A stretch of DNA of 37,345 bases from IMG/VR virus record IMGVR_UViG_3300024051_000049, positions 1 through 37,345 of that record. One strand, written 5' to 3'. This document shows, piece by piece, positions 9,179 through 37,345 of the stretch. Position 1 is the first letter of the stretch; each line of letters opens with the position of its first letter. Under the pieces are notes generated by a model. That model was not told where the DNA came from and searched no databases. It worked only from the letters and a program-made list of their open reading frames with translations. The position numbers and the translations under genes are program-made. The stretch is from a virus (Duplodnaviria > Caudoviricetes).

Positions 9179-9225
9179 GAGGTTGCTTTCTTTTGTTTGG
9201 TGTTTCTTGGGGTTCCGTGAGGTTG

Positions 9226-9298
9226 TGCCTGATACAAGGTTTGAACTTGTGACCCTCCGATTAAAAGTCGGATGCTCTACCGGTTGAGCTAATCAGGC
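9226..9298 (-). tRNA. tRNA-Lys(UUU), CCA not encoded
   Basis: Acceptor GCCTGAT/ATCAGGC+A; anticodon arm TCCGA-CTTTTAA-TCGGA; T arm ACAAG-TTCAAAC-CTTGT; 73 nt. Confidence 0.95.
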
Positions 9299-9355
9299 GT
9301 GACCCCGTGGGGCCGCTAACTGGTCTACACCGTCCGGGGGTGTCCGGTTAGCCCG

Positions 9356-9429
9356 TGCTCTTGACGCGATTCGAACGCGTACTGGACCGGGTTTAAGCCG
9401 GGTGCCTCTACCCGTTGGGCTACAAGAGC
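9356..9429 (-). tRNA. tRNA-Leu(UAA), short variable arm, CCA not encoded
   Basis: Acceptor GCTCTTG/CAAGAGC+A; anticodon arm CCGG-CTTAAAC-CCGG; T arm ACGCG-TTCGAAT-CGCGT; 74 nt. Confidence 0.92.
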
Positions 9430-9457
9430 GGGTGCCCACGGTGTGTGGGCTGTGGGG

Positions 9458-9619
9458 TTATTGGATGTTGATGTAGTGGCGTTTGTTGTTTGTGGTGCGG
9501 ATGGTGATGGACCCGAGTTGCGGTTCGATGTAGAGGCTTTTCACTTCGGTGTATGGGATGCCGGCGAGTTCTGTGATTGCTTGGATGATTCCGGTGGGGA
9601 GTGTGATGCGTGTGTTCAT
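9458..9619 (-). CDS. Hypothetical protein, 53 aa
   Basis: Hand-translated MNTRITLPTG...HYINIQ; ATGA overlap with dnaN stop. Confidence 0.65.
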   Translation of the reverse strand: MNTRITLPTGIIQAITELAGIPYTEVKSLYIEPQLGSITIRTTNNKRHYINIQ

Positions 9620-10701
9620 GTGAGGGTCCTGACGGGGACGAGGAGGTATGTGTATTGGCAGTGTGGTGTGTTGGGTGTGAATGTGACGGGTTTGTTGGGG
9701 TGGGTGAAGCCTAGGCGTGTGTCTTGGCTGGGTTGGGTGTCGAGGCCGTCTAGGAGGAATGCTGGGTTGAAGGATGTTTTTATGGGGTCCCCTTGTAGGG
9801 GTTGGGTGAGTGGGAGGGTTTCGGTGGCGTGTGCGTCTGTGGTGTTTCCGGCTGTGACTTCTACTGTGGTTTCAGTGAAGTTGAGGGTGATAGCGGTTCC
9901 TCGTTCGGCGACGATGCTTATGCGTTTCACTGCGTCTTGTAGTTCTTTGCCGTTCACTACTGCTGTGGTTGGGCAGGATTCTGGGATGAGGCGTTTCGCT
10001 GGTGGGTAGTCACCTGCGGTGATTGTGACGGTGATAGTTCTTAGTGGGGTGCTGAACGTGATGATGCGGTCGTTCGCGTGTAAGGTGATTTCGCCTGTGA
10101 GTGCGCGTGTGGCTTCGTGTACCGCCTTCCCAGGGACTAGGAGTTCGAAGTCTTTCCCGTCCCATGGGAGTGTTGAAGCAGTGAGGCGGTAACGGTCCGT
10201 TGAGATTGCCTCGAGGGCACCGTTGCTAGCGGTTAATTGGATGGCCGTCAGCAGTGGAAGTGCGTCATCTCGTGACGTAGCGGTTAACGCACGCGAGAGT
10301 ACTGGGAATAGTACGTCAGCGTGAACGTTTCCGAGGTAATCCCCTACGGTTGGTGGTGTTGGGTATTCACTTGATTCCATGGTGTTTAACCGGAATTTTG
10401 AGGCCCCACACTGTACTTCCAGTTTACCATTTTTCACGCTGAATTGCGCGGTTTTCTTCGGTAAAGCCGCCACGATTTCGGCTAGGAGTTTACCGGGAAC
10501 CAAGATCGTTTCCCCGTCAATGACGGTGGCTTCCACACTGGCTTTGACGTGTGTCGTGTAATCGTATGTTTCCGCTGTCAATTCACCGTTGAGGCTGCTG
10601 ATGCGCACGCCTGACAGGATTGGTGAAGGTGGGCGGATGGGAGCGGTTTTGGCTACCCACAAGAGTTGGTCGAAGTGTTGGGGTTCAAGTGTGAATTGCA
10701 T
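9616..10701 (-). CDS. dnaN: DNA polymerase III beta sliding clamp (phage-encoded)
   Basis: 361 aa; PILSGV, LVPGKLL, STDRYRL, GDYP, FNPAFLLDGL, YLLVPVR motifs. Confidence 0.93.
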   Translation of the reverse strand: MQFTLEPQHFDQLLWVAKTAPIRPPSPILSGVRISSLNGELTAETYDYTTHVKASVEATVIDGETILVPGKLLAEIVAALPKKTAQFSVKNGKLEVQCGASKFRLNTMESSEYPTPPTVGDYLGNVHADVLFPVLSRALTATSRDDALPLLTAIQLTASNGALEAISTDRYRLTASTLPWDGKDFELLVPGKAVHEATRALTGEITLHANDRIITFSTPLRTITVTITAGDYPPAKRLIPESCPTTAVVNGKELQDAVKRISIVAERGTAITLNFTETTVEVTAGNTTDAHATETLPLTQPLQGDPIKTSFNPAFLLDGLDTQPSQDTRLGFTHPNKPVTFTPNTPHCQYTYLLVPVRTLT

Positions 10702-10713
10702 GAGCGTGCTTTC

Positions 10714-11976
10714 TTATCTGGCAAGGTCTTTGAACCTTGAGTAATGGAATTGATGTGCAAGGGTAACAGTGCCTGTGGGACCGTTTCTGTGTTTACCTAC
10801 GATGATGTCTACCTCTCCTGCGCGAGGGTGTTCGGGTTCTTCATAATCTTCGCGGTGTAGGAGACAGATCACGTCTGCGTCTTGCTCGAGTGCACCGGAT
10901 TCACGTAGGTCGGAGATGCGGGGGCGTTTTTGGTCTGCTGCTCCACGGTTTAACTGTGCTGCAGCGGCAATGGGTATGCCGAGTTTTTTAGCCAGGATTT
11001 TTAGTCCGCGTGAGAATTCTTCGAGTCCTTCACGGCGTGAAACCTTCGGGTTGAATGTCCCTAACTGTAGGTAATCAATGCACGCGATGTCGGCTTTCAA
11101 ATCTTTGATGGTGGAGCGAATGTCAGCGATTGTGCATTCTGGGTCGTCAATGATGTGCAGGGGCGCGTTGCGGATCCGGGTTTGAGCTTCTGCTATGCGT
11201 TGCCATTCGTTGGCTCCTAAGTTTTTCTCTTGCAACTGTGTAAGTGGTATGCGTGCTTCAGCGGAAATGATGCGTCTGAGGTATTCATTTGCGCTCATTT
11301 CGAGTGAGAACACGACTGTTGTGTGTTGGTCTCGGATAGCGGCTGATCGTGCGATGTCTGCTAGGGCAACGGATTTACCCATTGCTGGGCGGCCAGCCAT
11401 GATAATGAATTGGCCTGCTTCCATTGGGCGTAGGACCCTGTGTGCGTCCGTGTAGGGCCAGTGGATTCCTTGCCCGTCACTGGTGTTTTCGAGGTCGTCT
11501 AGGAAGTCGTCTAATTGGTCGGAGACATGAGTTTTTTGGTGTTCTATTGGACGGTAGGCGGCTTCTAGCTCGGTCATTGCTAGGGTGGCAATGTTTTTTG
11601 GTGTTTCTTCGGGCATTGCCGCGATTTGTTGAATTCGCGTTCCGGTGAGGGTGAGCCGCCTGCGTACTGCGAGGTCTCTGATTTCTTCGGCGTAGGCTGC
11701 TGCTTGTACCCCGATGGTTCCGAGTGAAACTATGTCGATGAGTGTGGGTTGGAAGCGTTGTAAACCGTATTTCGCTAGCCCTGAGACGATGGTGATGGGG
11801 TCTACGAGTTGCCCTTGGGTGAGCATGTTTCTGGCGGTTTCCCATATTGCTTCGTGTGCTGGGACGTAGAAGTCATCGGGTGTGAGTGTGCGGATTAACT
11901 GGTTGAGGACGTTTGGGGTGTGTAGGGCTGCGCATATTACGCCGGCTTCTGCTTGTGGGTTGTGGAGGTCACTCAT
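10714..11976 (-). CDS. dnaB: Replicative DNA helicase
   Basis: AGRPAMGKS, FSLEMS, IDYLQL, QLNR, DLRESGALEQDAD, KHRNGPTG. Confidence 0.97.
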   Translation of the reverse strand: MSDLHNPQAEAGVICAALHTPNVLNQLIRTLTPDDFYVPAHEAIWETARNMLTQGQLVDPITIVSGLAKYGLQRFQPTLIDIVSLGTIGVQAAAYAEEIRDLAVRRRLTLTGTRIQQIAAMPEETPKNIATLAMTELEAAYRPIEHQKTHVSDQLDDFLDDLENTSDGQGIHWPYTDAHRVLRPMEAGQFIIMAGRPAMGKSVALADIARSAAIRDQHTTVVFSLEMSANEYLRRIISAEARIPLTQLQEKNLGANEWQRIAEAQTRIRNAPLHIIDDPECTIADIRSTIKDLKADIACIDYLQLGTFNPKVSRREGLEEFSRGLKILAKKLGIPIAAAAQLNRGAADQKRPRISDLRESGALEQDADVICLLHREDYEEPEHPRAGEVDIIVGKHRNGPTGTVTLAHQFHYSRFKDLAR

Positions 11977-12115
11977 TGGCTTCTCGTCCGTCTAGGCTGT
12001 GGTGTTTGTAGATGACACCGCCGGATAGGAATTCTGGGGTTGGCCCGCATACGCATTCGTCATCATCAGAGTGGTCTACCTGGTCGTTGACGGGCATGAC
12101 ATGCCATTCATCCAT
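11969..12115 (-). CDS. Small His/Cys phage protein, 48 aa
   Basis: Hand-translated MDEWHVMPVNDQVDH...CVCGP...HHSLDGREANE; GAAAGGA SD; overlaps dnaB start. Confidence 0.75.
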   Translation of the reverse strand: MDEWHVMPVNDQVDHSDDDECVCGPTPEFLSGGVIYKHHSLDGREANE

Positions 12116-12127
12116 TGGGTTTTCCTT

Positions 12128-12877
12128 TCAGAAATTCCGTGGGTTCGTGGGGTATCCGCGGAGGCTAATCCCCGGGTGATTGTGGCGTTGGCATCCTTTG
12201 GGGCATCCGTGGTAGTGCATGTAGCAAGCCCCCCTTCCCCGATGGTGGGCGTAAATGCTGGGGCAATCGGAGTGTTCAGCACCGATACATTCCCCGGTTC
12301 CGTCCGCGTGGACAATGACTGTTCCGTCGCATTTCAAGGTGAGGAGACTACGAGTGTTTCGCGGGTCTGCTTTTACCCATAGCTCTTCGTAGGATGCAGC
12401 ATCGCGCATGCATCGAAGGCGAGTATGGAATGTGGGGTTTGGTGGTGCCAGAGGGTTCTTGAGGTTTGGCCCGTCGAACGTGATCTTGTTTTGGCGTGCA
12501 GTGATGGGTTCGTTGCAGGCCATGCACGCGCCTTCGGGGATGGAGAGGAGTTCTTCCATTTTTTGGGTTTCCCGGAGCGCATATTCTTCGGCTTCATATT
12601 CCCGGCAGGGCGCGAGTTCACCACAGGACACGCAGATCGCGTAATGCTCTGGCAGGAGGTCCCAACCCATGTAGTAGGCGGGAACGGTGGTCCCATAGTG
12701 TGGGTGTAGTTGACCGGGTTTGTGGACGATGAGCTCAAACGAGTTTTCGTCAACGTCTCGAGTTCCTACAACGATCCAGGGTTTCCGGTCTATTGCGATG
12801 AGCATTCCTGGTTCGGGCCGTCGTGTCGTGATACTTCTGTGGATGCTTTTCACGGCGGGTGTCCAGTAGCGTCCCAT
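12128..12877 (-). CDS. Cys/His-rich hypothetical protein
   Basis: Start moved to MGRYW behind AGGAAGG; several CxxC motifs. Confidence 0.75.
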   Translation of the reverse strand: MGRYWTPAVKSIHRSITTRRPEPGMLIAIDRKPWIVVGTRDVDENSFELIVHKPGQLHPHYGTTVPAYYMGWDLLPEHYAICVSCGELAPCREYEAEEYALRETQKMEELLSIPEGACMACNEPITARQNKITFDGPNLKNPLAPPNPTFHTRLRCMRDAASYEELWVKADPRNTRSLLTLKCDGTVIVHADGTGECIGAEHSDCPSIYAHHRGRGACYMHYHGCPKGCQRHNHPGISLRGYPTNPRNF

Positions 12878-12938
12878 GGTTTCCTTCCTATGCCCGCCGA
12901 CATGACGCCGGCGGGCATAAAAATGACCCTCAGTGGGG

Positions 12939-13097
12939 TCAGTTGATGGTTGTTGGATCAGTGGTTTCGGGTGGGGGTGGTGTCCATCCGGCAGCGATGA
13001 TCGCGTCGGCGGTGTAGTAGTCATGTGTATGTGTAACCCCGCAACCGCATGTCCATACGTGGATGAGTTCGGCGAGTTCATCGCGTGGTGTGGTCAT
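12939..13097 (-). CDS. Hypothetical protein, 52 aa
   Basis: Hand-translated MTTPRDELAELI...ADAIIAAGW...; ATGA coupling. Confidence 0.7.
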   Translation of the reverse strand: MTTPRDELAELIHVWTCGCGVTHTHDYYTADAIIAAGWTPPPPETTDPTTIN

Positions 13098-30263: not shown

Positions 30264-30648
30264 TTGACACCTCGAGTGCTGCGATCTGGTCACGCAGGTT
30301 TTGTGCCTTGTCTACGGCTTTCTCCAAACGGGTTAGCAGGGTTTTCTGCTTACGGCGTTTGTTTGCTTCCTGCACTGGGATGAATTCACTTAATTCGGCT
30401 TCGAGGATGATCGCTTCGCCTCCCCATCTGCGCACGATGTCGACCTTCGATTGTGCTGCAGATCTGGACTGGTAAAGCTTGTTTTGCTTGGGCCAGAAGA
30501 ACGGCTTGTACGCGCCGAATTTCTCTTCCGAGTATTCTTGCCACCCTTCCGGCTCCCAGTCCTCGTTGATGTCGAACGCGCCCTCATCCCACTCATAGAT
30601 CGCACCGTCTGGGTACTTCGTGATTTCCATCTTGTACATGCGGGTCAT
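30256..30648 (-). CDS. Hypothetical protein
   Basis: AAGGAG SD; W-x-PEGW...FFWP...Y-x-SRS-x-A. Confidence 0.75.
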   Translation of the reverse strand: MTRMYKMEITKYPDGAIYEWDEGAFDINEDWEPEGWQEYSEEKFGAYKPFFWPKQNKLYQSRSAAQSKVDIVRRWGGEAIILEAELSEFIPVQEANKRRKQKTLLTRLEKAVDKAQNLRDQIAALEVSNG

Positions 30649-31478
30649 GCTGCGATCTCCTTACTAAGCGGTGGGAGCACCACATTGTGGGTGCGTAGGT
30701 TTTGAATTGCGGCATCCCATAGCCGTCCGTAACCGCGTGGGGTGAGGCGCGCGGACACTTTCACGAAAGACCCGTGATTCTTCGTTTGCACGGGAGTGTC
30801 CTTCGGCCGCACCCAACCCGATTCGATAGCCTTCGCGGTTGGCTGGTTATGGCGTACCGTATTCCCGCGAATGATCAGGCCAACGCGCCCGGCAAGGTCG
30901 AACACGTCATCCTGCCGGATCTTCACGTCAGGGAAATTCGATGCAGCGTGCACTTTCAGATCGTTGGCGAGATCACCGATAGTGCGCAGACCGTCTGCCT
31001 GCCGGAATGTTTCAGCTTGAGCGGCAGGCCCTTCCAGTTCTTGCGCTCGTTGAAGTGCGGCTTCTTTCGCGTCCTCCGCTTCAATGATCATGAGCGCGAG
31101 GTCACGGCGTGAGAGTTCACGGGGAGCCTGGGTTTCAGCGATGCGGGTTTGAATCGCGAAGTACGCTTGAGCCGCAGCCACTTCTGGGATATTTGGATCA
31201 CCATTCATCGCGACAAGGTACGCAGCAAAGCGCACCATGTAAATTTCCTCACGCGGACGGCCACCCGTACCCTTTTCAGTCGATCGCCTGAAAAGGTTCT
31301 CAACGTCATGGCCTTGGTTTTCAGCAGTCTTGAATGCACGGTTTATTGGGTTGAGGAACTCGTTCCACCGCGCATACCCCATGAGCGGCATCAAGTCACG
31401 GGCGGACCAGTACTCTGTACCATCAGGGCGGCGCTTCGCAATCCGATCAAACGGTGATGCAGGAACGCTGAGGCTCAT
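30645..31478 (-). CDS. Antirepressor-like protein (DinD/Bro-like N-terminus, KilAC-like C-terminus)
   Basis: SPFD...WSARDLM-x-x-MGY...AMNGDP...AQAYFA; PTA-x-AI-x-x-G...TPRG. Confidence 0.85.
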   Translation of the reverse strand: MSLSVPASPFDRIAKRRPDGTEYWSARDLMPLMGYARWNEFLNPINRAFKTAENQGHDVENLFRRSTEKGTGGRPREEIYMVRFAAYLVAMNGDPNIPEVAAAQAYFAIQTRIAETQAPRELSRRDLALMIIEAEDAKEAALQRAQELEGPAAQAETFRQADGLRTIGDLANDLKVHAASNFPDVKIRQDDVFDLAGRVGLIIRGNTVRHNQPTAKAIESGWVRPKDTPVQTKNHGSFVKVSARLTPRGYGRLWDAAIQNLRTHNVVLPPLSKEIAA

Positions 31479-32113
31479 TTTCCCTCCCACCGCTTTACGG
31501 TTGCTTTGCCCAGTCGCTTCAACGCACGGTATTGCTCGAACCAGATTTCTTGGGTGGCTTCGTCGGCGGTCCATTGCTTACGGCGGCGCTTCACCTCGTC
31601 CATGAGGGTGCCGAGAGTGCCACCGGTCCAGCAGCCAACGTCGAGGCGGTGTCCGCCGTTTTTTGTGCGGTAGAGATTTGCGGTTACGTTTTCTGAGCCG
31701 ATCTGCTGTACGACGAGGTAGTGCCATGAACGCTCAATATCCGCGTCGCCGTACACCCGCGCGCCGCCGGACACCTCCGCGTCGCCGAACACCCGCGCGT
31801 CGCCGAACACCCGCGCGCCGCCGAACACCCGCGCGCCGCCGAACACCTCCGCGTCGCCGAACACCCGCGCGCCGCCGAACACCCGCGCGCCGCCGAACAC
31901 CCGCGCGCCGCCGAACACCCGCGCGTCGCCGAACACCTCCGCGCCGCCGAACACCCACGAGCCATCATGTAGGTTGTCTAGGCTCTCAACCCAGCCACCA
32001 AGATCACCAGCCTTCACACCCTGTCGTGGTAGGTCTCGTGTAGCCCTGATCCGGTGGACCGTGTAGCTGTAAACCACTTTGGTCTCGCCCGTGAACTCGA
32101 AATGCTTGCTCAT
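31475..32113 (-). CDS. Hexapeptide-repeat (beta-helix) phage protein
   Basis: RIRA-x-RD...GDLGGWVE-x3-NL, 12 V[FSY]G[GD]A[RED] units, GCW-x-G. Confidence 0.88.
   Translation of the reverse strand: MSKHFEFTGETKVVYSYTVHRIRATRDLPRQGVKAGDLGGWVESLDNLHDGSWVFGGAEVFGDARVFGGARVFGGARVFGGARVFGDAEVFGGARVFGGARVFGDARVFGDAEVSGGARVYGDADIERSWHYLVVQQIGSENVTANLYRTKNGGHRLDVGCWTGGTLGTLMDEVKRRRKQWTADEATQEIWFEQYRALKRLGKATVKRWEGK
31739..31954 (-). repeat. Coding tandem repeat, 18-bp unit x12
   Basis: Consensus GTGTTCGGCG[GA]CGCG[CG][GA]G. Confidence 0.97.
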
Positions 32114-32992: not shown

Positions 32993-33262
32993 TTAAGCGG
33001 CTTTATCAAGCAGTACAACTGCACCGCTTGAACAGGCCATCTTGCGCACAAAAACGAGAGCTTCTGGAACATCCAAAGCCTCCGCAATGCGCTTACCAAG
33101 CAATGGAGTGCACGTCCGCTTCCGACCAACGCGAAGGTGGACGATAAACGACTTCGAGCAGCCGGCATATCGTGCGAGCCTCTCCGTGGAGAAGCCGCGC
33201 TGATCCATGAGTGCTCTCAACGTCTGCGGACTAGTGAGCTCCATGTACACGCTGCGGTTCAT
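32993..33262 (-). CDS. Cro-like XRE HTH regulator
   Basis: LRALM...LARYAGCSKSFI-x-HL-x-x-G...IAEAL-x-VP; GGAGG SD; divergent from the repressor. Confidence 0.88.
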   Translation of the reverse strand: MNRSVYMELTSPQTLRALMDQRGFSTERLARYAGCSKSFIVHLRVGRKRTCTPLLGKRIAEALDVPEALVFVRKMACSSGAVVLLDKAA

Positions 33263-33282
33263 GTTTGCCTCCAATCCGTTGT

Positions 33283-33447
33283 GGTAACCGTTGCTTGCAA
33301 TATCTATCCTATGGCAACGGTAACCGGTGCGCAAGACCCTTTTTAAAAGTTTTTTAAGGAATTTTGCTGAACCCTCAAGACGTTGGTAACCGCTCCAGAT
33401 AGGCTAGAGGCGTATTTCCCGCATATATCAAGGGAAAACGGTAACCG
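33283..33447. promoter_or_regulatory. Four operator cores GGTAACCG
   Basis: Exact copies at 33283, 33319, 33385 and 33440, between cro and the repressor gene. Confidence 0.75.
33306..33334 (-). promoter_or_regulatory. Early lytic promoter with operator in the spacer
   Basis: TTGCGC-17 nt-TAGGAT; near-palindrome GCAACGGTAACCGGTGC at 33314-33330. Confidence 0.75.
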
Positions 33448-33500: not shown

Positions 33501-34001
33501 GTGCAAAGCATCACTGACCTCATCCGATCTCAAGCAGCCATAACAGGCCGCTCATACCGAGACATGGAAGCGATCAGCGAAGCGGCAGGCTACAAGGTCC
33601 GACACCAAGCCTTCAACACCCTCGCTAACCGAGGTCCGGAAGGATTTCCCAGACACGTAGAAACCGTGAAGGGAATAGCAGTGGCATTGGATCTTACCGA
33701 GGAAGAAGTCCTCATGGGCTATGCGGTATCCCTGGGCATCCCTGTGAGAGGTAAGTCGTCTTTCGAGACTCGACTTCCCCCACGGGTGGATGAGCTTGAT
33801 CCAGAGATAGCGGATAACCTTATCCGTCTCATTAGGTCAGTGATAAATGAAGGGAGTGGGGAACATGATCAGCGTTCCACCACCGACATGCAGGCCGCAG
33901 GGAGTGCGGCCACCATCGCCCAAGACGATCTAGCCTTGGCAGCTCGAACCGGACTAGCCGGTAATGAGCAAGACACAGACTTCGATTCGTGGGGAGCCTA
34001 A
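33501..34001 (+). CDS. Immunity repressor (ImmR-like)
   Basis: RSYRDM N-terminal HTH-like region, IAVALDL, DLALAAR tail; position opposite cro and upstream of immA. Confidence 0.75.
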   Translation: MQSITDLIRSQAAITGRSYRDMEAISEAAGYKVRHQAFNTLANRGPEGFPRHVETVKGIAVALDLTEEEVLMGYAVSLGIPVRGKSSFETRLPPRVDELDPEIADNLIRLIRSVINEGSGEHDQRSTTDMQAAGSAATIAQDDLALAARTGLAGNEQDTDFDSWGA

Positions 34002-34059
34002 AGAAACCCAGCGAATCTACCGAAAACAGGTAGAAACACTTCTGCGCGGAAGGCCCATC

Positions 34060-34710
34060 ATGAGCGATAATCAATTCCAGCCGAAACCGGGAACGCAATC
34101 GACCCCGCAAACCCGGGCAGACATACGGATCCAGCAACCGGCGCTTGCCCCGCAATTTTCACCAGAACCACCACAGCCTCCAGTTCCACAGGTAGAACAG
34201 GATACTGCGACTCCACCGCGCAAGCGCCGGCTGATATCCATCCTCGCTGGATTCCTCACCGGCATACTCGTAGGAGCAGCCGGTGGAGTCGGATACATGC
34301 TCTGGGATCAACGATCCGACAATACAGCCGATGAAGAGTCTGACTTCACCCTCACAGTCCACGGGTCCGTGCAAGTCCCCGGACGCGACGCATCAGGCAG
34401 CCCATACATCACATCAGGCGGCAGATGCCGAGCTAACGATGGTTATGACGACGTGCGAGAAGGCGGGCAAGTAATCATCCGAGATAGCGCCAATACTGTC
34501 ATCGGGCTTGGCTACTTGAATGGCGGACGCATAGAGAAATCCGACTACGTAGACGGGGCTTACGAGACCGGAAAGTGCATCTTCACATTCGAGATCGAAG
34601 AAGTAAACCCACCATCTGGCTTCGTCTCCATTGACGTAGGGAATCGGGCCCCGTACACCATCGAATCGCTCGCGTTGTGGGATCCGATCGACCTCACTTT
34701 GGGGTACTAA
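34060..34710 (+). CDS. Single-pass membrane protein in the lysogeny module
   Basis: Pro/Gln-rich N-terminus, RKRR then TM helix, two-Cys beta-rich domain; GGAAGG SD. Confidence 0.8.
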   Translation: MSDNQFQPKPGTQSTPQTRADIRIQQPALAPQFSPEPPQPPVPQVEQDTATPPRKRRLISILAGFLTGILVGAAGGVGYMLWDQRSDNTADEESDFTLTVHGSVQVPGRDASGSPYITSGGRCRANDGYDDVREGGQVIIRDSANTVIGLGYLNGGRIEKSDYVDGAYETGKCIFTFEIEEVNPPSGFVSIDVGNRAPYTIESLALWDPIDLTLGY

Positions 34711-34728: not shown

Positions 34729-34750
34729 TGTCAGTGGGTAGAACTACCCT
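34729..34750 (+). promoter_or_regulatory. PafBC/RecA-NDp-type DNA-damage promoter (leaderless)
   Basis: TGTCAG-tgggtagaac-TACCCT = TGTCRG-N10-TANNNT, 6 nt before the immA ATG. Confidence 0.75.
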
Positions 34751-34756
34751 GCTAGC

Positions 34757-35152
34757 ATGTTTCAACCATGGCAAATAATAAGAGACCTACCCATCACCAT
34801 CCACTGGCGAAGAAAACCCGGTGTCCTCGGTGAAACTAACGGCACAGACACGATCTACTTGCACCCGGACCAATCACAAGCGCAACGACGCTGCACCCTC
34901 ACCCACGAACTCGCACACATCACCCTAGGCCACACTGACGGGTGCACAAGCCGTGAAGAGCACTACGCGGATATCCTCGCAGCGCAATGGCTGATCCCCC
35001 TACCTGACCTCATTAACGCGTTGAAATGGACGGAAAACCCCGTAGAACTCGCTGAAGAACTCACCGTAGACCAAGACACTCTAGCAACTCGGTTAAAGCA
35101 CCTCACACCAGAAGAACTCACAGAAATCCACGCGCACCTTGGAGAGCACTAA
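34757..35152 (+). CDS. immA: ImmA/IrrE-family metallopeptidase (anti-repressor)
   Basis: RRCTLTHELAH...EE-x-x-AD-x-x-AA-x-x-LIP...LAEEL-x-V. Confidence 0.92.
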   Translation: MFQPWQIIRDLPITIHWRRKPGVLGETNGTDTIYLHPDQSQAQRRCTLTHELAHITLGHTDGCTSREEHYADILAAQWLIPLPDLINALKWTENPVELAEELTVDQDTLATRLKHLTPEELTEIHAHLGEH

Positions 35153-36249
35153 TGCCTGGACACGTTAGAGACCGCTGGCACATCCCAGACCCTGACAGTC
35201 CGCGCAAAAAAATTAGGACACAACGCTACGGTAAAGGAAAACGCTGGCAAGCGATCTGGATAGAGCCAGACGGGACACGAAGGTCAGAGTCCTTTGAGTT
35301 GAAGGATGCGGCAGAAGCGAAACTAGATGCGATAAACCACCAACTGCGTTCACATGCGTACATCCCAGCTGAGCGGTCAAGAATCAAGTTCTCAGTCTAT
35401 TATCAGATGTTCACGGACTCGCAGCAGCATCGCCGGCCAAACACGCGGCGTACAGCACAAACCTATTACAAGAACGTTTACAAACCGCATTTAGGTGAGA
35501 AGCCCATCGGCTCCATCACACGGGAAGATATCCAAAACCTAGTCAATGGTCTTGCCGGGAACTACGCTCCGACCACCATCAAGAACATCATCTCCAACCT
35601 ATCGCCTGTATTCACGACAGCGGTTTTCGATGGGTACATAGTCAAGTCCCCTATCGTGCGTATAAGGATCCCAGAAGTCGATTCAGGACGTAAGAATCCT
35701 ATAGGTATTGACGACGTGAAAACCCTTGCCGAAGCGATGCCAGCAGACTACCGGCGTGCATGCCTGTTTAATGCGTGTGTGGGTCTACGACCAGGGGAAT
35801 TATGTGCTATCGAATGGGAAGATATTGAGGACCTCCCAGAGGGTACAGCTCGTCTAACCGTCAGTAAGCAAGTGGACCGGCAGGGGCAGCATGCACCATT
35901 AAAGACGAAGAATTCTTACAGGGTTATCCTGATCGGTGCTCATGCCCGTGCATTCCTTGGGGAACGTGGTGAAGGACCTATTTTTCACACGGTGCTAGGG
36001 AAAAAGTTGACGACCTTGGCGTTACGCACTGAATGGGCGAAAGCACGCGATAAGACGGGAGTGCAAGCGACCGGGTGGCATGAGCTTAGGCATTTTCATG
36101 CTTCGCAGTTGATTGCTGCTGGTGTGTCCCCAGTGGCGGTTGCTCGCAGGCTCGGACACAAAGATGCGACGGAGACGCTACGGACGTATGCGCATTTATG
36201 GCCGGATGATGATGAGCGGATGGCGGATGCTGCTGAGCGGTTTCTGTGA
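35152..36249 (+). CDS. int: Tyrosine integrase
   Basis: GLRPGE, LKT, HELRH, LGH, TY catalytic set; TAATG overlap with immA. Confidence 0.96.
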   Translation: MPGHVRDRWHIPDPDSPRKKIRTQRYGKGKRWQAIWIEPDGTRRSESFELKDAAEAKLDAINHQLRSHAYIPAERSRIKFSVYYQMFTDSQQHRRPNTRRTAQTYYKNVYKPHLGEKPIGSITREDIQNLVNGLAGNYAPTTIKNIISNLSPVFTTAVFDGYIVKSPIVRIRIPEVDSGRKNPIGIDDVKTLAEAMPADYRRACLFNACVGLRPGELCAIEWEDIEDLPEGTARLTVSKQVDRQGQHAPLKTKNSYRVILIGAHARAFLGERGEGPIFHTVLGKKLTTLALRTEWAKARDKTGVQATGWHELRHFHASQLIAAGVSPVAVARRLGHKDATETLRTYAHLWPDDDERMADAAERFL

Positions 36250-36307: not shown

Positions 36308-37345
36308 CTAAGAATAGTTGCTGTCATCTTGACTTGAAAGTCGTGGCGAGTGTAACACTGCTCGCCCAATAGATCCACGACCAAACTTGGCTTGTATTTC
36401 GTCCATAACCTGCTCAGAGCGACTCAGTGCAACCACCGCACCCTGCGCGGACTCTTCGAGAGTATCTTGCATTGGAAGGCTCTGGGATGAACCCAGATTC
36501 TCAACTCGCACACCAATCAACCTGACAGTTTTATGACGTGGCAACGCTGTCAGAAGTTCCCGAGCATGACGGTATATGACCGCTCCCACATCTGTTGCCG
36601 AGCGCAAAGTAACCGAGCGATTAACCGTAATAAAGTCGGAATCTCGAACTTTGATTGATACAGTCTTGCCCTTTAGTCCACGGGCTCTGAGGCGCCGGGC
36701 GCAGTCATCGCTGAGGTCGAGCATCTTACGAAGTAGTTCCTCTTGAGAATGCTGGTCTCTCGAGAATGTGCTCTCCGCACCAATCGAACGTTCAACGTGA
36801 TAGGTCTCAACTTGCCGTGAATCCTGCCCCCAAGCTAGTGCGAGAAGGTGGCGGGCCGCTGACTTACCGACAATTCGCTCCAGAGCAGGCAGATCAGTAT
36901 GAGCCAATTCAACTACGTTATGAATCCCCCACTGCTCAAGTTTTTCTTGAGTCTTCGCACCAACACCCCACAGCGCGCCCACCGGCAACATATGCAAGAA
37001 CTCCACACTGACAGCATCCGGAATGAGCATGAGTCCGTCCGGCTTCGCTTGAGTCGAAGCCAACTTCGCAATGAACTTATTGCGCGCAATCCCTACCGAA
37101 CAGGTAATACCAAACGCTCGAAATACTTCAGCACGAATCAATTGTCCAATTTCTACAGCGCCACCTAGTCGACGTGTCGATCCTGATATATCGAGAAACG
37201 CTTCATCCACACTCACCTGTTCGAGCTCTGGTGTTATTGCGGCAAGGATGTCCATAACACCTCGAGAAACTTGGCGATATGCTGCATGATCTGGCACAAG
37301 ATAAATCGCACCTGGCGCGAGCGCCTTAGCTCTCGCCACCGGCAT
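36308..37345 (-). CDS. dinB: Host DNA polymerase IV, 5' end outside the window
   Basis: SVDEAFLD, CSVGIA-x-NK-x-x-AK-x-AS-x3-KPDG, LWGVG, VRLIGV. Confidence 0.96.
   Translation of the reverse strand: MPVARAKALAPGAIYLVPDHAAYRQVSRGVMDILAAITPELEQVSVDEAFLDISGSTRRLGGAVEIGQLIRAEVFRAFGITCSVGIARNKFIAKLASTQAKPDGLMLIPDAVSVEFLHMLPVGALWGVGAKTQEKLEQWGIHNVVELAHTDLPALERIVGKSAARHLLALAWGQDSRQVETYHVERSIGAESTFSRDQHSQEELLRKMLDLSDDCARRLRARGLKGKTVSIKVRDSDFITVNRSVTLRSATDVGAVIYRHARELLTALPRHKTVRLIGVRVENLGSSQSLPMQDTLEESAQGAVVALSRSEQVMDEIQAKFGRGSIGRAVLHSPRLSSQDDSNYS

Follow-up and report, generated by a model that had tools for sequence, protein, structure and literature searches.

A PafBC-type promoter signature before immA in an actinobacterial prophage: a possible induction switch read by a host LexA-independent DNA-damage regulon

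The anti-repressors Tum of coliphage 186 and AntC of N15 are controlled by LexA, and in these phages a damage regulon of the host drives prophage induction, through relief of LexA repression and anti-repressors of the binding type. The ImmR/ImmA systems (ICEBs1 of B. subtilis, TnSmu1 and the pneumococcal ImmAR prophages) combine a small GAF-less M78 protease with an XRE repressor devoid of an S24 domain, near an integrase; ICEBs1-type immA is paired with immR and its product is activated post-translationally. The M78 fold is shared by IrrE/DdrO of Deinococcus and by CapP/CapH, which also have an XRE repressor with a helical C-terminal part and an SOS-independent damage response, and in which IrrE (by a GAF domain) and CapP sense ssDNA themselves. 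How the small GAF-less ImmA proteases get switched on is described as an open question in the available text of PMC12828697, which reports that B. subtilis ImmA gets no stimulation from ssDNA and raises the possibility that induced expression serves as an input. In mycobacteria, the ssDNA-activated regulator PafBC (PMC11804915) acts by sigma adaptation at the so-called RecA-NDp promoters, and the targets covered in the parts of the literature available to us are chromosomal repair genes (PMC8635444, PMC11804915, PMC8151990).

Here we describe a prophage locus in which the same promoter layout, with an exact match to its TGTCAG variant, lies before a probably leaderless gene for a predicted anti-repressor. 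The window, i.e. the whole stretch of DNA analysed, is a linear virus record of 37,345 bases (53.6% GC, completeness estimate 67%) with head genes, a lytic and replication arm including whiB and, at its right end, the immunity genes, an integrase and the 3' part of a host dinB. The gene order at this end is Cro-like, repressor, membrane-protein gene, M78 protease, tyrosine integrase and dinB (Table 1). The dinB stop marks the limit of similarity to host relatives; the window contains one prophage end only, and the attachment core could not be fixed. As the nearest named DinB, that of Timonella senegalensis, is only 67% identical, the host should be an unsequenced Micrococcales bacterium, which we take to belong near the Jonesiaceae/Cellulomonadaceae; searching at the DNA level turned up no genome close to it. 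Genes elsewhere in the prophage include those for tRNA-Lys, tRNA-Leu, a DNA polymerase III beta clamp and a DnaB helicase (9225-13081), and a beta-solenoid (YdcK-like) protein with tandem 6-residue repeats (31475-32113, minus strand) whose gene adjoins that of a BRO/KilAC anti-repressor (30645-31574).

Table 1. Features of the immunity region and prophage edge (positions in the window)
Feature	Position	Strand	Assignment
Cro-like HTH gene, divergent	32993..33334	-	heads the lytic arm; domain and PHROG matches
Four GGTAACC near-palindromes	33283, 33319, 33385, 33440 (33283..33446)		candidate repressor operators; putative binding sites
Predicted immunity repressor	33501..34001	+	PHROG 12831 transcriptional repressor, E 1e-30; putative ImmA target
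Accessory gene	33964..34710	+	between repressor and immA; one predicted membrane segment (hydrophobic stretch judged by eye)
PafBC-type -26 element TGTCAG(TG), TGTCAGTG	34729..34736	+	consensus match; G, T and C at 95-98% in 60 homologue promoters
SigA-type -10 element TACCCT	34745..34750	+	among 60 homologue promoters, 98-100% have the A and the final T
immA	34757..35152	+	131-aa M78 (IrrE/ImmA) zinc metallopeptidase; PF06114, E 1.4e-11; PHROG 87; predicted anti-repressor
Tyrosine integrase	35152..36249	+	TAATG junction with immA; co-transcription likely in this case
Host dinB (3' part)	36308..37345	-	prophage edge and host lineage marker; 67% to Timonella senegalensis DinB cluster

Re-reading the sequence bore out the promoter as it had been described in the initial annotation. 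TGTCAG-N10-TACCCT spans 34729-34750, leaving 8 nt between TGTCAGTG and TACCCT, and 6 nt (GCTAGC) separate TACCCT from the immA ATG. None of AGGA, GGAG or GAGG precedes this ATG, i.e. immA has no Shine-Dalgarno (SD) sequence, and the TAATG junction with the integrase is present at 35152. The layout TGTCRG-N10-TANNNT, which had been put forward as that of PafBC-bound promoters, agrees with the consensus tGTCgg(N10)tA(N3)T given in PMC8635444 and with the TGTCAG variant accepted for M. tuberculosis in PMC8151990. From the spacing, transcription is predicted to start at the A of the ATG at 34757, giving a leaderless message; a generic sigma-70 scan called no promoter at immA. The window contains a single match to TGTCRG-N10-TANNNT, counting both strands. 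Its mere presence is not significant, since 0.27 matches are expected by chance anywhere in the window and 22 of 100 shuffles had at least one. A motif placed 5-10 nt before a given start, however, has a chance of 3.7e-5 at this base composition, or of about 0.003 over some 75 genes, the gene number being a rough estimate.

The initial annotation had proposed that the motif should be sought at the same spacing upstream of immA homologues. For each homologue, every in-frame start between -110 and +25 nt of the expected one was tried at spacings of 5-10 nt and the best-fitting placement was retained; controls were treated alike. With one mismatch at most, the motif was kept 6-9 nt from the start in 17 of 23 phage records, which had been chosen from 294 matching records for diversity and not at random, and in 26 of 56 other loci. 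The latter derive from 62 loci collected by alignment (5 viral, 57 from genomes) after removal of five near-duplicates and one locus without upstream DNA; 15 of them have an exact motif and 46 are within two mismatches, all 46 with a spacing of 6-8 nt, while the core GTC/A/T is kept in 49 and missing from 7. A single-protein scan of viral contigs for immA relatives found nothing. Among cultured phages, the motif is present in Sbash, Xavia, Squirty and Dori of M. smegmatis and in Cashline and Powerball of Gordonia. Thus, most of the related prophages examined share an immA directly behind a PafBC-type signature. The phage records without it are REQ2, Adelaide, Bran, Richie, Morgana and a Pseudoalteromonas out-group, and in four of the five actinophages among these immA overlaps or abuts the stop of an upstream HTH gene, as in the ICEBs1 layout (by the annotated start in REQ2 and Adelaide, by a start extrapolated from the alignment in Bran and Richie).

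In an alignment of 60 promoters, information is found at GTC, G6, A18 and T22 and the spacer is free; these positions correspond to the capital letters of the consensus in the accessible text of PMC8635444. The alignment leaves out nine duplicate, distant or motif-less loci and its placements were chosen by motif, so it displays the positions that are kept and is no blind test. The controls gave little: the motif occurred before one of 102 other annotated genes of the same phage loci, namely the integrase of Dulem virus 32, and before none of the 66 scored among 70 other M78 genes from the host's family (four could not be scored). These 70 comprise the 30 best matches and 40 short ones, with 60 further matches outside the set, and include one repeat of locus L023 and one motif-less gene of the same clade. 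None of 55 motif-bearing genes had an SD-like 4-mer, against 15 of 26 from a different clade of stand-alone M78 genes; in this comparison, part of the SD zone is taken up by the -10 box. The loci share ancestry and were counted without a tree, and therefore the counts do not represent independent events. Judged by this conservation and placement, the promoter signature is real and under selection, and we consider it very probable that PafBC reads it.

What is seen in relatives of the host fits this assignment. Of 301 genomes of the family, the five whose DinB is closest all have a PafB homologue (relatives, not the host itself; one PafB is in two pieces), and in the four of these with a readable recA promoter it contains TGTCAG-N10-TANNNT together with a LexA box, two of the four motifs matching the first 11 nt of the motif in the window. 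Hosts of related immA loci likewise carry tandem WYL genes (5/5) and the motif at recA.

Some variants of the promoter deserve mention. In one of the hosts just mentioned, Luteimicrobium album (L018/L019/L021, three copies that count as one event), a perfect LexA box at -47 replaces the -26 box, while the -10 element and the leaderless spacing are kept, so that this looks like the same gene placed under a second damage regulon, that of LexA; a motif close to the PafBC type is found some 207 nt upstream. In Jatrophihabitans/Pseudonocardiales-type MAGs (L031-L070), cro/XRE/immA modules carry the variant CGTCRG..NANNNT at immA and share a downstream neighbour, with no integrase within 3 kb, and these modules are possibly chromosomal, domesticated damage switches. 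A changed PafBC specificity in the Jatrophihabitans hosts was rejected as the reason for this variant, since recA has a canonical promoter (TGTCGG/TAGCGT) in the one such host checked; the variant fits tolerant positions of the consensus. Nor could the absence of the -26 box be put down to a missing pafBC: the hosts of L023 and L028, which have no box at immA, keep both the -10 element and pafBC. Of 16 Mycobacterium/Gordonia loci tested, 15 carry a second conserved word resembling GTARTTCCTGGTCA, some 10 nt ahead of the -26 box, and 14 other loci all lack it (loci bearing the word: L003, L005, L006, L008-L010, L038, L043, L304-L307, L309, L316 and L317); it is absent from the window. Dulem virus 32 has, besides the promoter of immA, a PafBC-like leaderless promoter of its own before the integrase (L308:1932-1960), and a complete mycobacterial-type provirus has two more exact PafBC-type motifs (G309:C1:56164-58073) in addition to that of immA.

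The product of immA is predicted, from its sequence, to act as an anti-repressor protease. The metal-site residues are HELAH at 50-54 and E68, and none of 11 aligned homologues deviates at the HEXXH motif or the third ligand. The structure model has a pLDDT of 93 and its top Foldseek rows are IrrE/PprI, PrpR of Mtb and CapP; these hits are weak, none being below E 0.001, and a search of PDB sequences with the ImmA profile returned nothing significant. Unlike IrrE and CapP, this ImmA has no GAF or other ssDNA-sensing domain, and sensing would therefore be outsourced to PafBC.

That the repressor has no recognisable S24 autocleavage domain, as first noted, was confirmed in three ways. Its model is all-helical, with an XRE-like five-helix domain (residues 1-77), three C-terminal helices (87-118) and a low-confidence tail, and gives weak fold matches to XRE proteins including DdrO and CapH, with no hit below E 0.001 and a best Z of 8.6; none of 56 aligned relatives matches S24; and no Peptidase_S24 match was found anywhere in the window (a record estimated to be 67% complete). 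Five related records also lack S24. The repressor thus differs from the CI type of lambda, which is recognised by its S24 peptidase domain. As in ImmR/ImmA systems, an XRE repressor without such a domain is found in the neighbourhood of immA, yet immA is not adjacent to or coupled with the repressor gene, because the accessory 248-aa ORF and a separate promoter signature intervene. The accessory gene has no family match among domain and PHROG profiles and its stop is 18 nt before the motif. The only four copies of GGTAACC in the window are confined to the stretch from cro to the repressor, with none near the immA promoter, which for this reason does not look repressor-controlled.

The initial annotation had further suggested that a single promoter serves both induction and excision. 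This holds for the window to the extent that int is coupled to immA; as a general design it does not stand. Within the 0.1-3 kb of flank searched, a recombinase was found on the same strand at 15 of 65 loci with the core motif, on the opposite strand at 16 and not at all at 34, so the promoter belongs to immA and the integrase link is local. Moreover, integrase alone gives no excision, for which a directionality factor is needed. Most of the 34 loci are of the Jatrophihabitans/Pseudonocardiales type and may be chromosomal rather than prophage. What most often follows immA immediately is a DUF3263 gene, which accounts for 13 of 26 downstream ORFs scanned (of 56 picked) and does not occur in the window.

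The availability of RNA data for one locus, L208, which is 98% identical to a stretch of phage phiGD20-1 and has an exact motif, allowed us to look at expression in three raw runs (X21, X22 and X23) from one study of unknown condition. A further run, X24, yielded 0 mapped reads. Coverage of immA equalled or fell below coverage ahead of the motif, without any step (108 vs 162, 6 vs 8 and 35 vs 49), and no pile of 5' ends was seen at the motif in these three runs. In X22 and X23, host recA exceeded its X21 level about 15-20 times, and these were also the runs with the lowest immA, i.e. immA tracked read-through, not recA. By our estimate, reads in these numbers spread evenly over a 5-Mb genome would give nearly the recA depth observed (150-400), and therefore none of the three runs may be damage-induced. 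Sbash carries the motif, and according to the available text of PMC6426596 its lysogen needs no added damage to express genes 40-43, of which 42 is IrrE-like. Together with the depth at L208, this indicates that read-through into immA exists. Read-through into L208 immA was higher in X21, the run in which a small HTH gene oriented against repressor and immA (L208:1033-1302) was about 10 times lower.

We propose that DNA damage triggers induction through PafBC-driven immA acting on a repressor that does not cleave itself, a reading to which we assign a probability of roughly 60%. Damage would activate the PafBC of the host, PafBC would start a leaderless immA message, and ImmA would inactivate the repressor, allowing lytic growth to begin; in the window the integrase would share the transcript, as an optional element. 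PafBC dependence, the start site and the action of ImmA on this repressor are what we infer here. Transcripts reading through from the repressor operon would cover immA and offer it no ribosome-binding site, so that mainly the PafBC-started leaderless message would be translated and the switch would be tight. Such a leaderless gate would reconcile basal read-through with control by damage.

The amount of protease may not be all that matters. PafBC might supply ImmA while RecA or another factor is still needed, making induction LexA-independent but not RecA-independent; activation of ICEBs1 ImmA through RecA or RapI (10.1101/2022.05.11.491493) and the variable RecA sensitivity of pneumococcal ImmAR prophages (PMC12637031) speak for such a double requirement, and extra control would be useful given basal read-through over immA. 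We regard it as unlikely, as some of those pneumococcal prophages lyse without RecA, according to the available text of the same study, and a dedicated, selected promoter would be the simplest solution if protease amount is limiting. Still less probable is that the promoter is PafBC-driven and its output is something other than a trigger of lysis, with ImmA, often together with DUF3263, tuning the repressor, binding it without cutting or regulating another target. The 34 motif loci without a nearby recombinase and the frequency of DUF3263 behind immA would be in line with this, as would Rir, a similar small M78 protein that inhibits its repressor with no detectable cleavage in the available text of PMC12828697, but the invariant HEXXH and third ligand and the position of immA in an immunity cassette beside S24-less repressors argue for a protease that acts there.

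Very improbable, in our judgement, is a promoter independent of PafBC, i.e. an ordinary leaderless SigA -10 element with an upstream word for another host or phage factor and low constitutive expression. Lysogens do contain basal immA RNA, and Mycobacteriales phages have a second element ahead of the box; the level of basal RNA, however, does not change at the motif, and the promoter therefore does not look constitutive. When viral contigs were searched in the reverse direction, starting from a 14-base pattern, about a ninth of the collection yielded 127 loci, and immA was behind the motif in only 3 of 122 distinct matches, most being low-GC lake phages or chance, and the motif is therefore not immA-specific across phages. 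Five WhiB-bearing viral contigs of 104-113 kb and about 40% GC (G303-G307; L179, L219, L226, L237 and L249) have 8-23 copies of TGTCRG-N10-TANNNT each, mostly clustered on one strand before small genes (0-2 with a reversed-pattern control), and many of L177-L303 belong with this multi-copy type. In such lytic-type phages the copies precede probable early genes and a damage signal is less obvious, which would favour another factor; yet none of the five has a WYL gene of its own, and the immA promoter fits the PafBC consensus letters, the N10 spacing and the host recA promoters exactly.

We therefore prefer induction by PafBC-driven immA, in which the novelty lies in PafBC as an input to the known ImmA/ImmR parts, working in the manner of the LexA-controlled anti-repressors mentioned at the outset. 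Compared with Tum and AntC, a positive activator and a predicted protease take the place of LexA relief and a binding protein, and the Luteimicrobium locus looks like the LexA version; compared with ICEBs1, immA has the promoter signature of a host activator of its own and is separated from the repressor by the accessory gene. Among the matches listed in our literature searches, whose coverage ended at subscription journals and bioRxiv supplements, no link between PafBC or RecA-NDp promoters and a phage anti-repressor was found; the accessible part of the NormanBulbieJr preprint has no passage on such a protease, and the phiRv1/phiRv2 rows in the accessible supplement of PMC8151990 gave no lead.

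Damage sensing by temperate phages of mycobacteria and their relatives is poorly explained where the repressor cannot cleave itself. It is possible, although we lean slightly against so broad a statement, that widespread temperate phages of actinobacteria (hosts in Mycobacterium, Gordonia, Arthrobacter, Cellulomonadaceae and Nocardioides) are induced without RecA/LexA and use PafBC as the prophage alarm, with LexA control or coupling to the repressor gene as swappable inputs and with read-through unable to replace the leaderless message. If the proposed switch is real, the PafBC regulon would extend to mobile elements, and it would be possible to predict which DNA-damaging drugs induce such prophages.
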